NCBI GenBank assembly: GCA_020632255.1
Contig: JACKFX010000003.1
Location: 48,119-112,118, forward strand
DNA length: 64,000 nucleotides
Reading direction: 5' to 3'
From: Pseudomonadales bacterium
GTDB taxonomy: Bacteria; Patescibacteriota; Microgenomatia; UBA1400; PJMF01
Shown here: one piece after another, positions 3,626 to 10,002 of the stretch
Position numbering within the stretch: the first letter of the stretch is position 1
How the letters are laid out: each line of letters starts with the position of its first letter
Notes under the pieces: model-generated
The model's input: the letters and a program-made list of their open reading frames with translations, nothing else
Database searches by the model: none
What the model was told of the DNA's origin: nothing
Translations under genes and position numbers: made by a program

Positions 3626-4721
3626 ATGAGGTCGTTTCAATGTCAGAAATATGTAAGATTCGTTTGGTACCATCTTGTTGGAGCTGAATGTGCACTACTG
3701 GTACTTTTTTGTCTTCGGCTACTGACAGTATGTAATCCTTTGCTACATCAAACCACTCGACGAGTAAGAGAGAGTTGGGTCCGAGCATTTCATCGATGCC
3801 CAAGCGCGATGCTTCCTCAGCAGATGCAACTTTCCAAATATCTGCGTGATAGAGTCTTCCAGATGTCTGGTGACGCGTGTAGTCATACTCTTCAACATAG
3901 GCATATGTTGGGGATGTAATTGTTTCAGTGATTCCCAAAAACTTGGCGATTCCTTTAGTGAAAATAGTTTTGCCCACTCCAAGTGGACCATCAAGAGCAA
4001 TGATCAGGCCTGTTTTTGCAATATCATTCCAATGTTGCAGAGCTATTTTTCCTGCTAAATCCATAGTTTCTTGCTCTGATTGAGTAATAGCTTTCTGTGT
4101 CATTTCGGCATTGAAGGCAGCTTCTCCTTGCCGAAGAGTGATGGGTGTTTCTAATGTGGTATCAATTACCGTTGAAGGCGGGTTGTGTGGCAGTTTCCCC
4201 GCATCAAGAATGAGGTCAATTTTTTCTTTTTGGGTATTTGAGAGATTATCAAGGATATCTTGTACGGTGTATGGACGCTTTTTTCCTGAAGCGTTGGCTG
4301 ATGTGGCAGTCATGGGTTTGCCATAAGCAGCAACGATATCTAAGATTAATTGATAGTCGGGAATTCTGAGGCCAAGGGTGCCAAATTCAGATGCAACACC
4401 AGGAGAAACAACGCCTTTGTCTTTGCACACAACCGTCACGGGTCCAGGTAAAAACTGAGAAATAATTTGGTCTGCTTGATCATTGATTTCAACGTAGGTA
4501 CGTGCCATTTCTTTGTCGGTAACAGCAATCGAGAGTGGTTTGCCTTCTCGGCGGCTTTTGTACGCCAAAAGTTTTTCGATTGCCACAGGATTGGTCGCAT
4601 CCACACCTGCCCCGTAGGTTGTCTCAGTTGGAAAAATAACTAAACCACCACTTGAGAGTACTTTCCGAGCGGTTGAGATAATATCTTTGACTGGTGTATG
4701 AGCACAATCGATGATTTGCAT
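3615..4721 (-). CDS. fusion protein: L-threonylcarbamoyladenylate synthase TsaC (YrdC domain) + t6A ATPase TsaE (YjeE domain)
   Basis: The N-terminal half has VIFPTETTYGAGVDATNPVAIEKLLAYKSR (YrdC/Sua5 fold). The C-terminal half has GPLGVGKTIFTKGIAKFLGI..SPTYAYVEEY..LYHADIWKV..LLLVEWFD, with the TsaE/YjeE P-loop and signature. It overlaps tsaD by 11 bp. Confidence 0.8.
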   Translation of the reverse strand: MQIIDCAHTPVKDIISTARKVLSSGGLVIFPTETTYGAGVDATNPVAIEKLLAYKSRREGKPLSIAVTDKEMARTYVEINDQADQIISQFLPGPVTVVCKDKGVVSPGVASEFGTLGLRIPDYQLILDIVAAYGKPMTATSANASGKKRPYTVQDILDNLSNTQKEKIDLILDAGKLPHNPPSTVIDTTLETPITLRQGEAAFNAEMTQKAITQSEQETMDLAGKIALQHWNDIAKTGLIIALDGPLGVGKTIFTKGIAKFLGITETITSPTYAYVEEYDYTRHQTSGRLYHADIWKVASAEEASRLGIDEMLGPNSLLLVEWFDVAKDYILSVAEDKKVPVVHIQLQQDGTKRILHISDIETTSYEN

Positions 4722-6686: not shown

Positions 6687-6724
6687 TTGACAATTTGTTA
6701 GCAGTTGATTAGTATAACTGCTAG
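6687..6724 (+). promoter_or_regulatory. TTGACA -35 box plus CIRCE-like operator TTAGCAGTT-N9-AACTGCTAG upstream of groES
   Basis: A 9-N9-9 inverted repeat at 6698-6724 matches the HrcA operator consensus TTAGCACTC-N9-GAGTGCTAA at most positions. The -35 TTGACA is at 6687-6692 with a TAGTAT -10 at 6710-6715. Confidence 0.65.
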
Positions 6725-6794
6725 TTGGGTGGCAATCAGCTTGTTACCCAACTTCATCAAATTAGTATAAATGTACAAGAAAAAGAAAGGTGAT

Positions 6795-7097
6795 ATGTCA
6801 TCTGTTTCTGTTTCCAAAATTTCTCCATTGGCTGGATATGTTTTAGTAGAGCCAGCGGAAGTACAATCTCAAACTGCCAGCGGTATTTATATCGCCTCAG
6901 AAAATCAAGAGAAGCCACAGTATGGTACCGTTGTTGCTGTGGGTGATGATGCTGTTGTAGACGGACAAACTGTCAAAGCCCCAGTCAAAAAAGGCCAAAT
7001 TGTTGTCTTTAAAAAATGGGGTGGCACCGAATTAAAAGTAGAAGGTACCGAGTATACATTTTTGAAATTTGAAGACTTACTTGCTGTTGTTAAGTAA
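6795..7097 (+). CDS. groES: co-chaperonin GroES
   Basis: ..PLAGYVLVEPAE.. and ..GIYIASENQEKPQYGTVVAVG.. match the Cpn10 family. The internal ATG at 6795 is preferred over the ORF-track start at 6771 (MYKKKKGD extension). Confidence 0.9.
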   Translation: MSSVSVSKISPLAGYVLVEPAEVQSQTASGIYIASENQEKPQYGTVVAVGDDAVVDGQTVKAPVKKGQIVVFKKWGGTELKVEGTEYTFLKFEDLLAVVK

Positions 7098-7137: not shown

Positions 7138-8763
7138 ATGAGCGCAAAACAATTACTTTTTGGCGATGATGCCCGACAGAAGATGGTTTCAGGAGTTAGC
7201 CAGTTGGCTGCTGCAGTAACTACAACCCTTGGTCCTAAGGGACGCAACGTGGCGTTGGAAAAATCTTGGGGAGCTCCAGCGGTTATCCACGATGGTGTTT
7301 CTGTTGCCAAAGAAATTACTCTCGAAGATAAATTTGAAAATATAGGAGCCCAACTCGTCAAACAGGCTGCTGAAAAAACCAATGAGGCAGCTGGTGATGG
7401 AACGACTACTGCAACCCTTTTGGCCGAACAGATTACCGTTAAAGGTATGAGATATGTTACTGCTGGTACCAACCCAATGATCATGAAGAAGGGGATTGAT
7501 CGCGCCGTTGATGCAGTGGTCAAGGAAATTCGACGTCTTGCAAAACCAGTCAAGAAATCAGATTGGGCAAAAGTCGCTACTATTTCTGCTCAAAATGAAG
7601 TGATTGGTGCCAAAATTGCCGAAGCTCTCGAGCTTGTGGGCGAAAATGGTGTTATCGAAGTCGAAGAAGGCAAGACCATGGACATCACCATCGAGCACAA
7701 AGAAGGTATGGTCTTTGATAAAGGCTATGCCTCACCATACTTTGCTGCTGGCAGTGAAAATATGGAAGCTGAAATCAAGAATCCCTATATCTTGGTAACA
7801 GACGAAAAAATCACCAGTATGCAAGAGCTCGTACCACTTTTGGAGAAGTTCATGAATGTCAGTAAAGATTTGGTCATTATTGCTGATGATATTGAAGGAG
7901 ATGCACTGACGAATTTAGTTGTAAACAAGTTGCGTGGTGTATTTAATGTCTTAGCTGTGAAAGCTCCGGGTTTTGGTGACCGCCGTAAGGCGATGCTCGA
8001 AGATATCGCCGTCTTGGTCGGTGCTGAATATATTTCGGCTGCTCGAGGTATGTCTATCAAAGAAGCTTCAGTTGAACATCTAGGTCGTGCAGATTCAGTC
8101 AAAGCAACCAAAGACACCACAACCATTGTTGGTGGCAAAGGCAGCAAGGCTGATGTAAAAGCTCGCATTGCTCAAATCGAGCAAGAGATGAAGGCAACTG
8201 ATTCAGACTTTGATAAAGAGAAGCTCAACGAGCGTAAAGCTAAACTTGCCGGTGGTGTTGCCGTCATCCAAGTTGGTGCTGCGACTGAGTCTGAAATGAA
8301 GAACTTAATGGAGCGCGTTAAAGACGCTAAAGAAGCCACCAAAGCTGCTATCGAAGAGGGAATTATCCCAGGTGGAGGTGTGACTTTGCTCCAAGCAACT
8401 AAGGTTCTCGAAAAGATGACATCAGAGGTACATGATGAGCAAGTTGGTATTGACCTCATCAAGCAGGTTGCGCAGGAGCCTTTGAGAATGCTCGCTGAAA
8501 ATAGCGGTGAAGACGCTGGTTGGGTAGTGCGCACAGTTATTGCTAAAGATGATCCAATGTTTGGCTTTAATGCACTTACTAACGAGTTTGGTGACATGAT
8601 TAAAGCTGGTGTAGTTGAACCTGCCAAGGTGGCCACTGCATCTTTGACGAATGCTGCATCTGTTGCTTCAATGATTCTTACAACTGAATGTTTGGTTACC
8701 GACATTCCTGAAAAGGAAGCTGCTCCTGCCGGAGGTATGGGTGGGGGTATGCCGATGATGTAG
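7138..8763 (+). CDS. groEL: chaperonin GroEL
   Basis: MSAKQLLFGDDAR.., AAGDGTTTATLLA and the C-terminal GGMGGGMPMM tail. Confidence 0.95.
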   Translation: MSAKQLLFGDDARQKMVSGVSQLAAAVTTTLGPKGRNVALEKSWGAPAVIHDGVSVAKEITLEDKFENIGAQLVKQAAEKTNEAAGDGTTTATLLAEQITVKGMRYVTAGTNPMIMKKGIDRAVDAVVKEIRRLAKPVKKSDWAKVATISAQNEVIGAKIAEALELVGENGVIEVEEGKTMDITIEHKEGMVFDKGYASPYFAAGSENMEAEIKNPYILVTDEKITSMQELVPLLEKFMNVSKDLVIIADDIEGDALTNLVVNKLRGVFNVLAVKAPGFGDRRKAMLEDIAVLVGAEYISAARGMSIKEASVEHLGRADSVKATKDTTTIVGGKGSKADVKARIAQIEQEMKATDSDFDKEKLNERKAKLAGGVAVIQVGAATESEMKNLMERVKDAKEATKAAIEEGIIPGGGVTLLQATKVLEKMTSEVHDEQVGIDLIKQVAQEPLRMLAENSGEDAGWVVRTVIAKDDPMFGFNALTNEFGDMIKAGVVEPAKVATASLTNAASVASMILTTECLVTDIPEKEAAPAGGMGGGMPMM

Positions 8764-8766
8764 TTC

Positions 8767-8891
8767 GTAAAGACATAGACAAAAAGAGACGCTCAGCAAC
8801 ACTTCGCTGCTTGTAGCATCTCCAGAGGCTTTGTGCCATCTTCAAGATTACTTGTCGATGCTACAAAGCCTCTTTTTGTCTATGTCTTTAC
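8767..8891. repeat. MITE-like element: perfect 22-bp terminal inverted repeats GTAAAGACATAGACAAAAAGAG / CTCTTTTTGTCTATGTCTTTAC flanking ~81 bp with nested inverted repeats
   Basis: Left arm 8767-8788, right arm 8870-8891. Inner IRs are TGTAGCATC/GATGCTACA and GAGGCTTTG/CAAAGCCTC. The downstream spacer also has GAAGGCG-ttt-GCGCCTTC and GAGCCACGGA..TCCGTGGCTC hairpins, and a 24-nt direct repeat TCAGCAACACTTCGCTG.T..GTAG at 8793-8816 and 9032-9055. Confidence 0.45.
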
Positions 8892-9085
8892 TCACAGAGA
8901 ACTTGCTTTGAAGGCGTTTGGCGCCTTCTCCAAGCTCAGTGAGCCACGGACACAAATCACAAACAAGAACATGTAGATAGTCCGTGGCTCAAATGCTTCT
9001 GCAGCACTAAGTAGCTTTTTTTGCTAGTTGTTCAGCAACACTTCGCTGTTCGTAGAAGATTGATCTTTGACGTTTTACCTATTAA

Positions 9086-9113
9086 AATGCCTCGCTGTAC
9101 GCGAGGCATTTTT
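9086..9113. terminator. rho-independent terminator (groEL 3' end; convergent with pgeF)
   Basis: AATGCCTCGC-tgta-GCGAGGCATT followed by TTT. Confidence 0.6.
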
Positions 9114-9117
9114 GCGT

Positions 9118-9723
9118 CTATTTGAGTGCAATCCCAAAATAATTCATCTGTACCCCCTCACCCTCAACACGGTAGGAGTGGTACTCATCCGAGAAGCACT
9201 CGGTGCAATCGCCTTCAACGGTGAGGGAAATTTTTTCAGGATCAAATACTTGGTACGCTTGTGCCATATTTTCGGCAATCAAGCTGTAGTGAGTGTCGGT
9301 TTGACGGTCAATCTGGTAGCATTCTTCGCAGATTGCTGGGCCAAACCAGAGAGAAATACCTTCAGTAATATGCTTTCCATTTTTTAGAAAAGTGAGCACT
9401 TTTTTAAGTATTTCTTGCTGAGTTGATTTTCTGCCGGCATGGATAGCTCCAACTATTCCGGATGGGTGGTACAGCAAGATAGGGAGGCAGTCAGCAGTTT
9501 TGACGGTGAGTAAAAGTCTGGAGTTTGAGGTTAGAACCCCATCAACTCCAGGAATTTTTTCAATGAATTCAGTACGCTCAGTAAAGTCACTGCCATGAAC
9601 CTGTTCCATGGTGACGAGTTTTTTTTGATGTGCTTGTGAAAACGCTGTAACTTCTGAAAAATTGCCAAATTTGTTGGTTCTGATGGTGAGTGCTTTTTGG
9701 GGATGAAAAAATGACTGAATCAT
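9118..9723 (-). CDS. pgeF: peptidoglycan editing factor PgeF / YfiH (DUF152, laccase-domain) family protein
   Basis: ..MEQVHGSD.., ..KTADCLPILLY.. and ..GAIHAGRK.. match the conserved His/Cys/His motifs of the YfiH family. Confidence 0.7.
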   Translation of the reverse strand: MIQSFFHPQKALTIRTNKFGNFSEVTAFSQAHQKKLVTMEQVHGSDFTERTEFIEKIPGVDGVLTSNSRLLLTVKTADCLPILLYHPSGIVGAIHAGRKSTQQEILKKVLTFLKNGKHITEGISLWFGPAICEECYQIDRQTDTHYSLIAENMAQAYQVFDPEKISLTVEGDCTECFSDEYHSYRVEGEGVQMNYFGIALK

Positions 9724-9734
9724 TATGAAAAGTG

Positions 9735-9808
9735 TAGCAAGGGAGAGATTTGAACTCTCGACCTTCGGTTTATGAATCCGATGCTCTAACCAACTGAGCT
9801 ACCTTGCC
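9735..9808 (-). tRNA. tRNA with CAU anticodon (elongator Met or lysidine-modified Ile2)
   Basis: Reverse complement GGCAAGG-TA-GCTC-AGTTGGTTA-GAGC-A-TCGGA-TTCATAA-ACCGA-AGGTC-GAGAG-TTCAAAT-CTCTC-CCTTGCT-A folds as a 74-nt cloverleaf with U33 and A37. There is a G1-U72 wobble, and CCA is not encoded. Confidence 0.8.
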
Positions 9809-9933: not shown

Positions 9934-10002
9934 CGCGGGATAGTGTACGGTGCACGTGAGGCTCATAATCTCACAGGCTAGGTTCGACTCCTAGTCCCGC
10001 AA
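9934..10002 (+). tRNA. initiator-type tRNA-fMet (CAU anticodon, C1xA72 mismatch), unusually short (~69 nt)
   Basis: CGCGGGA-TA-GTGT..CAC-G-TGAGG-CTCATAA-TCTCA-CAGG-CTAGG-TTCGACT-CCTAG-TCCCGCA-A. It has the classic CTCATAA anticodon loop, a TTCGACT T-loop, and an unpaired C1/A72 as in bacterial initiator tRNA. The D-arm and variable loop are short. Confidence 0.7.

Follow-up and report, generated by a model that had tools for sequence, protein, structure and literature searches.

A candidate structured RNA behind groEL in a clade of Pacebacteria-like Patescibacteria

The 64-kb stretch of DNA analysed here (the window: 64,000 nucleotides of contig JACKFX010000003.1, assembly GCA_020632255.1, lineage Patescibacteriota) carries a palindromic element directly behind groEL, at positions 8767-8891. 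A preliminary description had considered this element as a miniature inverted-repeat transposable element (MITE) or other non-autonomous transposon, as a cluster resembling repetitive extragenic palindromic (REP) elements, or as a structured small RNA (sRNA). We consider it very likely (probability about 0.85) that the element is a conserved structured RNA which is found at a single locus, and not a transposon. Judged from the sequences compared, it appears to be lineage-specific and vertically inherited within a genus-level clade of Pacebacteria-like Patescibacteria. Its basic unit, which we call type-1, has a length of ~125 nt and a two-hairpin core; the unit closest to the stop codon is clamped by a long outer stem with one A-rich and one U-rich arm. 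For its biological role we favour, with a probability of about 0.55 for the proposal as a whole, a cis-acting module that would form and stabilise the 3' end of the groESL mRNA.

The repeats from which the preliminary description started were all recovered by our repeat search at the positions given, and they are far above chance. The two arms of a perfect 22-nt inverted repeat (8767-8788/8870-8891) are separated by 81 nt. This is the only long-range perfect inverted repeat of the window, and by our own estimate a perfect 22-nt inverted repeat within 400 nt is expected ~1e-6 times by chance in 64 kb. Additional inverted repeats are nested (8824-8846/8851-8873, 83% complementary, and 8811-8820/8857-8866, complementary at 10/10 positions), and a perfect 12-bp hairpin is located at 8940-8951/8980-8991. 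A direct repeat of 24 nt (8793-8816/9032-9055) matches at 22 of the 24 positions. Neither the 22-mer nor the 24-mer ever recurred in dinucleotide shuffles of the window. The type-1 unit is composed as follows:

8767-8891, plus strand: type-1 unit, a Y-shaped structured RNA with an outer stem and two hairpins; matched by covariance model R1 with 134 bits, E = 3e-37

8767-8788, plus strand: 5' arm of the outer stem (the left terminal inverted repeat of the preliminary description), GTAAAGACATAGACAAAAAGAG; A/G-rich, 22/22 complementary to 8870-8891

8870-8891, plus strand: 3' arm of the outer stem (the right terminal inverted repeat of that description); U-rich, also serving as the U-tract after hairpin 2

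8787-8821, plus strand: hairpin 1, in which 8787-8798 pairs with 8808-8821 (RNAalifold); 90.8% paired over 10 copies

8791-8796/8802-8807, plus strand: P2, a small hairpin competing with hairpin 1; 81.7% paired, 3 doubly changed pairs

8824-8873, plus strand: hairpin 2, terminator-like; 94.1% paired, 6 doubly changed pairs

8811-8820/8857-8866, plus strand: P3, an alternative helix with 10/10 pairs in the window; excludes hairpin 1 and the middle of hairpin 2

The Y-shaped fold was obtained from RNAalifold and from covariance-model alignments, and covariation was counted over ten distinct copies. In these, 92.8% of the fold is paired and 12 pairs are doubly changed, a value that is reached in none of 500 shuffles (0/500). 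When the partners are slid against each other, pairing of the Y-shaped fold drops to 34-53% (27-53% across this fold and the alternative one involving P2 and P3).

In hairpin 2, the long stem is interrupted by a conserved UU/UC internal loop and capped by the apical hairpin CAAG-NNNN-CUUG (8843-8854); the U-rich arm comes next. Tandem U.G/G.U wobble pairs are kept in most copies (alignment columns 75-104 and 76-103), and the folding energy of the hairpin ranges from -14 to -34 kcal/mol across the ten copies. The sequence that comes after hairpin 2 is CUUUUUGU. Within the 8 nt past the hairpin, 4-6 U are found in nine of the ten copies (6 U in four, 5 in one, 4 in four) and 2 U in the last one. 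Hairpin 1 and hairpin 2 are joined by a conserved UCUCCA linker.

The outer stem behaves differently from the core. Its arms differ almost completely between the sub-lineages (window/L008, L009/L017a/L126a, L119, L007, L011; L-numbers, L001-L128, designate the loci of GroEL relatives and the pattern-scan stretches that were compared with the window) yet stay complementary: 22/22 positions in the window, 21/21 in L017a and 21/22 in L008, with one G.U pair each in L009 and L119. Arms that vary in sequence but still pair are the signature of a stem, and not of ends that are recognised by a transposase. On the groEL strand, about 31 cells of the alignment are G.U as compared to only few A.C cells, and this excess favours an RNA that would be read from the groEL strand. 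Among the possibilities raised by the preliminary description, it is the structured RNA (there termed structured sRNA) that is supported, by a conserved and covarying fold at a single locus.

A type-1 element is found after the groEL stop codon in seven related lineages (L007, L008, L009, L011, L017, L119, L126), one of which, L017, is Candidatus Pacebacteria CG_4_9_14_0_2_um_filter_40_15. It starts 3-6 nt past the stop codon in the window and in L007, L008, L119, L009, L126 and L017. In L011 a different, type-2 module abuts the groEL stop and the type-1 unit comes behind it. The nearest GroEL relatives are annotated as Patescibacteria, Pacebacteria or Woesebacteria, which places the source of the window among bacteria of the Candidate Phyla Radiation (CPR), with a Microgenomates/Pacebacteria affiliation. 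Relatives with a GroEL 86-91% identical to that of the window have kept the gene order yidC, SPFH-family (Band 7) gene, groES, groEL and convergent pgeF. The pgeF gene lies downstream in most element-bearing relatives, and synteny was found in L001-L013, L119 and L128; in L017, the next gene 3' of the element codes for a membrane protein on the opposite strand. The exact GroEL of the window is also found on short contigs of the metagenome-assembled genome GCA_020429005.1 and in several sequencing runs, with spacers that are 100% identical.

In the GroEL tree the element-bearing loci group together, and the element-less L120/L122 branch joins the same unresolved node, so that the element would either have been lost on this branch or have arisen after the branch had split off. 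L014 and L124, which fall outside the element group on this tree, have only a short plain terminator. Altogether, four neighbouring lineages carry nothing but a plain terminator after groEL. More distant Patescibacteria have ordinary terminators at this position, except for L016 and L019, which instead have unrelated long-stem hairpins. In these two loci, whose GroEL is 80-81% identical, branched hairpins with outer stems of 20 bp and 14 bp are found past the groEL stop (L016 4126-4215, L019 4132-4215), and elaborated hairpins behind groEL may thus be a wider habit of the group. The element-less L122 keeps a post-stop sequence (4133-4162, TCTAAAGAAGATATAAAATTAGAAAG) similar to the 5' arm of the outer stem in L007 (4054-4082), which hints that the arm is older than the core or that the core has been deleted. 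As to gene annotation, GroEL was called with 566 aa by the source in L126 (471-2171) and L127 (475-2175), reading through the TAG codon into the element. With translation table 11, groEL ends at the usual place in both loci; a similar call of 582 aa (P0125) exists in the L011 cluster.

In the sequences that were scanned, the element was linked to groEL only. Within the 64-kb window, there is no second copy of the 22-mer (allowing up to 3 mismatches) or of the 24-mer, and covariance model R1, which was built from the type-1 family, matched only 8764-8892, with filters on as well as off. The next-best R1 match in the window, at 2516-2627 with E = 0.4, corresponds to a bidirectional terminator of the usual type. 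A scan of the whole metagenome collection with a degenerate core pattern retrieved 25 stretches, 5 of which are true and 20 of which are chance matches according to the covariance model. All five true matches come from organisms with a copy behind groEL; one of them, L094, starts at a contig edge and is identical to L011. On a 1.19-Mb contig of a relative, which is essentially a whole genome, the core pattern matches the groEL locus only, and the core element gave no matches in viral contigs. Nine of the chance matches (L096, L098, L103, L107, L114-L118; Ga0307xxx and Ga0325xxx contigs from related samples) share an identical 61-nt span; this is probably one conserved sequence of an unrelated organism and is negative with the covariance model. 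In the preliminary description, a single copy that is conserved at this position in all relatives had been taken to speak for a cis-regulatory RNA rather than a mobile element. Our findings essentially agree with this: the window has a single copy, and the element recurs at this position in seven related lineages, but not in all relatives.

The core is much more conserved than its surroundings. Four-fold degenerate sites of groEL are saturated (37-49% identity) in every element-bearing pair, and the core is 60-97% identical. For the pairs window-L008 and L009-L017, the element represents the most conserved 130 nt of the locus (90-98% identical, as compared to 66-93% for groEL and 10-56% for the remaining spacer). 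The high identity stops at the element and reaches no further into groEL than the universally conserved codons of the GGM tail. Because it does not spread into groEL, a long recombination tract is unlikely. The comparison indicates that the core is under purifying selection.

The core can adopt a second fold, in which the 3' strands of hairpin 1 and of the central part of hairpin 2 pair with each other as helix P3, accompanied by P2. In alignments that had not been fitted to P3, this helix reaches 95% pairing, with double changes in 6 of its 10 pairs. For the combined P2+P3 fold, 91.9% pairing and 14 doubly changed pairs were counted over the ten copies, and again none of 500 shuffles attains as high a value. 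The strand common to P3 and hairpin 1 follows its P3 partner more closely than its hairpin-1 partner in the window, L008 and L007. Mutually exclusive helices that are conserved, as they are known from attenuators, are thus represented by the Y fold and the P2+P3 fold. Folds that contain P3 are 4-17 kcal/mol less stable than the Y fold or the fold of minimum free energy (MFE), the copy in L011 being an exception. The alternative fold may function as a switch, may be passed through during folding, or may have been left over from the origin of the element. An H-type pseudoknot of P3 with the base of hairpin 2 was considered and rejected; by our inference, 0 nt would be left between the 3' strands and 5-6 nt would have to cross ~15 bp.

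The type-1 unit is part of a modular region. Further modules that are present in the window are:

8899-8995, plus strand: type-2 module, consisting of a hairpin (8910-8916/8922-8928), a UCC-AAGCU linker and the 12-bp hairpin 8940-8951/8980-8991

9031-9055, plus strand: relic of a second type-1 unit, 5' part (P2 region); 22/24 identical to 8793-8816

The window therefore contains one full type-1 unit, one type-2 module and one type-1 relic, the second copy of the 24-nt direct repeat being what remains of a second type-1 unit. The 25-mer AGGCGYTTGGCGCCTYCTCCAAGCT of the type-2 module is shared with L011, L012 and L013 only. In the alignment with L011 compensated stem changes are seen, and the module has its homologue there in a long-stem element of 135 nt, located ahead of the type-1 unit in a region that folds with z = -9.28. 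The latter element (L011 4633-4768, also in L012, L013 and L128) is Y-shaped, has a near-perfect outer stem of 24 bp, and occupies the interval between the groEL stop and the type-1 unit; this 135-nt element could form an RNA motif family of its own. L017 and L126 have two full units (a, b) in tandem, with the b units lacking the 5' outer arm. L126, with a third unit, and L009 end in a truncated unit whose P2-like hairpin and U-tract form a terminator. In L119 there is just one unit, which is b-like but has a perfect outer stem of its own, and L007, which is closest to L008 by groEL, has a divergent unit that is followed by a relic of an L008-type 3' arm (41/45). Taken together, these arrangements are best described as a small array that changes by duplication, unequal crossing-over and decay.

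We propose the following mode of action. The element would be transcribed as the tail of the groES-groEL message. Hairpin 2 and the U-rich 3' arm may then act as a weak or auxiliary intrinsic terminator, and the nearly fully paired Y structure would bar 3'-to-5' exonucleases; termination and exonuclease barrier would jointly set the 3' end and the lifetime of the chaperonin mRNA. The competing helix P3, together with P2, could dismantle hairpin 1 and hairpin 2, and the module may toggle between a closed and an open state. Hairpin 2, U-tract and A-rich 5' arm would correspond to the layout of an elaborate bidirectional intrinsic terminator, and in L119 and L011 there is no other terminator between the element and the convergent pgeF. 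By starting 4 nt past the stop codon, the element would be placed inside the footprint of the terminating ribosome. REP elements that act on translation termination are likewise placed just past stop codons.

A number of observations weigh against this proposal. Most lineages have a further conventional terminator downstream, and the element can therefore not be the main terminator. Hairpin 2 is not called by a consensus terminator scan because of its internal loops, and the U-tract is weak in L011 (2/8 U). The minus strand folds about equally well and, in the window, even better (-72.5 vs -61.8 kcal/mol); the strand was assigned by G.U counts only, as folding energies of the whole element do not discriminate. 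The covariation counts come from ~6 independent lineages, so that few evolutionary events are behind them. A conservation of 93-98% at saturated synonymous divergence is not normal for terminators or stabiliser hairpins and points to a more specific partner, protein or RNA, than an exonuclease block would require. Finally, the tree of the element is partly incongruent with the groEL tree (L007 vs L008; L119 vs L009). The array dynamics account for such partial disagreement, which may be due to paralog sorting in the tandem array; recombination between lineages is the other option.

A specific partner would be provided if the element were an sRNA that is excised from the groESL 3' untranslated region (UTR) and acts in trans or binds a protein, a reading which we regard as possible, if unlikely. 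The outer stem would then be a processing stem (e.g. for RNase III), similar to those of rRNA precursors, and the released core would act via the unpaired UCUCCA junction, the GCAACAC loop and the UU/UC internal loop. In its favour, conservation exceeds the structural need: loops and junction are kept at the identity level just mentioned, and the core is kept even in b units that have no outer stem. Tandem multicopy arrangements are typical of some sRNA families, and the lack of a promoter fits release by processing. However, an 8-mer complementary to the conserved loop is not enriched in the window and no target was inferred, Rfam families do not match, and the present observations fit a cis-acting role equally. 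Rfam 15, when applied to the spacer, the whole window and two relatives, gave best values of 13-22 bits against thresholds of 34-200 bits (E 0.2-9). These noise matches were to microRNA precursors, a streptococcal sRNA and the hairpin ribozyme; two tRNAs were found as well. The two conserved and exclusive pairings lead to another reading, a two-state switch resembling an attenuator, in which hairpin 2 with the U-tract is the terminator, P3 the antiterminator and hairpin 1 the anti-antiterminator, with P2 competing with hairpin 1. Whether transcription stops or reads on into later units and antisense to pgeF would depend on a factor, on temperature or on a ligand. Compensatory changes in both pairings, found in alignments not fitted to P3, would be explained, as would the closer tracking between the two strands of P3 than between the strands of hairpin 1 (window, L008, L007), and the U-rich tract past hairpin 2 and the nature of groESL as a stress operon are in line with it. 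We nevertheless consider it quite unlikely: pgeF is convergent and there is no co-directional downstream gene to be gated, the P3 fold is kinetically disfavoured and, except in L011, less stable than the MFE fold by the 4-17 kcal/mol given above, P3 is degenerate in b units (L017b, -4.6 kcal/mol), and the resemblance among the four strands could merely reflect the way in which the element came about. Similarly doubtful is a bistable 3'-UTR device, in which the closed Y would terminate or protect and the open P2/P3 state would let transcription or decay proceed. If this were true, the open state would expose ~20 nt including the AGAGG tract, and temperature, a protein or a small molecule would throw the switch; the type-1 units would form a tandemly arrayed riboregulator that controls, from the 3' UTR, the output of heat-shock genes in CPR bacteria.

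Two readings do without a functional RNA. The element could be a functionless palindrome that arose by template switching or slippage at a convergent terminator, or a site that acts at the DNA level (cruciform, protein-binding). Outer stems with perfect Watson-Crick pairing that appear to be replaced wholesale between lineages would be expected in this case, and so would the perfect 5' arm of the single b-like unit in L119, which is absent from the tandem b units, the unrelated long-stem hairpins after groEL in distant relatives, and a minus strand that folds about as well as the plus strand. But the core is far more conserved than neutral sites and the remaining spacer, loop and junction sequences are conserved, and wobble pairs have been kept that would be A.C mismatches on the other strand, so that we consider this reading very improbable. 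Even more remote is a MITE or other mobile or selfish repeat, perhaps one that is site-specific for the groEL 3' end or spreads between related genomes. The element has the size (125 bp), the lack of coding capacity and the perfect 22-bp terminal inverted repeats of a MITE. Its presence differs among related lineages, with 0 to ~2.5 copies at the locus, element tree and host tree disagree, near-identical elements occur in hosts with saturated synonymous sites, and L007 has a divergent copy beside the relic of another. However, the transposon reading of the preliminary description did not survive the comparison, and the element is not a MITE because three defining features fail: there is no target-site duplication (flanks TTC/TAGTTC|GTAAAG ... 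CTTTAC|TCA/TCACAG), only one copy is present in the 64-kb window, with a single locus also on the 1.19-Mb contig and none in viral contigs, and the arms change in sequence between lineages while their pairing is kept, as in an RNA stem and contrary to what terminal inverted repeats recognised by a transposase would show. Moreover, the internal helices covary with G.U pairs, as expected for selection on RNA, the empty site of L122 resembles the 5' arm of L007, which argues for descent in place, and identity drops sharply at the edge of the element, leaving no long recombination tract.

With the cis-acting structured RNA as the preferred reading, the element can be compared to known systems. It shares with REPs and bacterial interspersed mosaic elements (BIMEs) the palindromic nature, the location just past stop codons in 3' UTRs and the occurrence in tandem or mosaic clusters, represented here by the a/b/c units of L017 and L126 and by the mixed type-1/type-2 arrangements in the window and in L011. 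At the RNA level, REPs and BIMEs block 3' exonucleases and terminate transcription weakly; those situated no more than ~15 nt from a stop codon also modulate translation termination. A single REP has 20-40 nt; a genome holds tens to hundreds of them, and RAYT transposases mobilise them. In contrast, the groEL-associated element has ~125 nt, is Y-shaped, is restricted to a single locus without dispersed copies, and has a core with strong sequence conservation. The preliminary suggestion of a REP-like cluster was thus appropriate for the post-stop position and the tandem, modular layout, but genome-wide repetition is lacking. By analogy, the element would work most like REPs, BIMEs and complex terminators, without being a member of the REP family, from which size and copy number exclude it. 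Intrinsic and bidirectional terminators have in common with it a stable hairpin with a U-rich tract after it, an A-rich pairing tract upstream and the site between convergent genes; they differ in that the element is several times larger, branched, 93-98% conserved and usually followed by a conventional terminator. With attenuators it shares the conserved mutually exclusive helices, but not a co-directional downstream gene. Like the 3'-UTR-derived sRNAs CpxQ and SroC of enterobacteria, it would lie in the 3' UTR of a stress operon, lacks a recognisable promoter and is more conserved than its structure alone would demand, but according to Rfam it has no similarity in sequence or structure to any described family. 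The attC sites of integrons are imperfect palindromes of 57-141 nt directly after an ORF (open reading frame), with conserved structure and variable sequence. Here, however, R''/R' core sites (RYYYAAC/GTTRRRY) are missing, groEL is no cassette gene, the core is conserved in sequence and the G.U evidence points to RNA. The element ends with GTAAAGAC ... GTCTTTAC and thus has no AAC/GTT core sites, so that it is not an attC site. We conclude that the element is a new orphan structured-RNA motif, which belongs to a known general kind, the RNA structures associated with 3' UTRs and terminators.

To our knowledge, very few non-coding RNAs are known from Patescibacteria/CPR, and their genomes of ~1 Mb leave little space for non-essential sequence. 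Here, a 125-nt element has been retained at an invariable position downstream of a core stress operon, with a conservation that exceeds that of groEL itself. Two covarying exclusive folds and a tandem layout with birth and death of units make it a credible new orphan RNA motif, and it offers a handle on post-transcriptional control of the chaperonin in uncultured CPR organisms. The case also calls for caution, as what looks like the perfect terminal inverted repeats of a MITE-sized element can be an RNA stem; the two readings are cleanly separated by comparative data. As the clade is narrow and the function inferred, the general impact is moderate.

The element is embedded in the following neighbourhood:

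6771-7097: groES, flanking gene, 5' of groEL

7138-8763, plus strand: groEL (ORF list; Pfam Cpn60_TCP1, E = 4.5e-66), which ends with the stop codon TAG, 4 nt before the start of the type-1 unit

9084-9112, both strands: bidirectional intrinsic terminator, AAAATGCCTCGC-N5-GCGAGGCATTTT, with a 12/12 inverted repeat 9084-9095/9101-9112

9118-9723, minus strand: pgeF/yfiH-like gene (Pfam Cu-oxidase_4, E = 1e-30), convergent with groEL

Pfam confirmed groEL and pgeF as the flanking genes that the preliminary description had assigned. That description had also regarded a structured insert of ~350 bp as unusual. The spacer between groEL and pgeF has 354 bp. Convergent genes are usually closer together than this, but the window has a still longer gap elsewhere. 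Folding of a 361-nt stretch covering the spacer resulted in z = -9.25 relative to shuffles. The hairpin at 9084-9112, which has A and T runs on either side and is separated by 5 nt from the stop codon of pgeF, is a conventional bidirectional terminator that closes groESL as well as pgeF and does not belong to the element.

Other interpretations of the spacer sequence were rejected. A coding function of the GTG ORF at 8833-8976 was dismissed because reading the alignments by eye showed no conservation: the GUAA of the apical loop in L017a introduces a stop codon in frame after 5 codons, and single-nucleotide indels distinguish the homologues. Read-through or recoding of the groEL stop codon would add only 4 codons past TAG. 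For the three-way junction, hammerhead, twister and T-loop were considered, but their core motifs are absent. A search with CTTGAAGA was uninformative, and in the literature we found no description of a groEL-associated RNA from CPR. The promoter scan detected no promoter-like site between groEL and the element. The sole promoter-like match in the spacer (9060-9088, plus strand; TTGATC, 17-nt spacer, TAAAAT) runs into the bidirectional terminator and is probably fortuitous.

A few observations concern the flanking genes. Upstream of groES, at 6688-6735, a sigma-70-like promoter (TTGACA, 17-nt spacer, TAGTAT) overlaps with an inverted repeat, TTAGCAGTT-N9-AACTGCTAG, that resembles the controlling inverted repeat of chaperone expression (CIRCE). 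This suggests HrcA/CIRCE control of groESL in this CPR genome. The 5' UTR of groES holds another hairpin (GTTGGGT...ACCCAAC). The PgeF/YfiH-like ORF codes for only 201 aa and is matched by Cu-oxidase_4 at profile positions 31-167 of 238; its relatives have 203-205 aa, so that the protein of this clade is typically short and diverges at the C-terminus. Directly upstream of pgeF are two divergent tRNA-Met (CAT) genes at 9734-9808 (minus strand) and 9934-10002 (plus strand), the latter of which scores well below its partner in the Rfam tRNA model (45 vs 72 bits).

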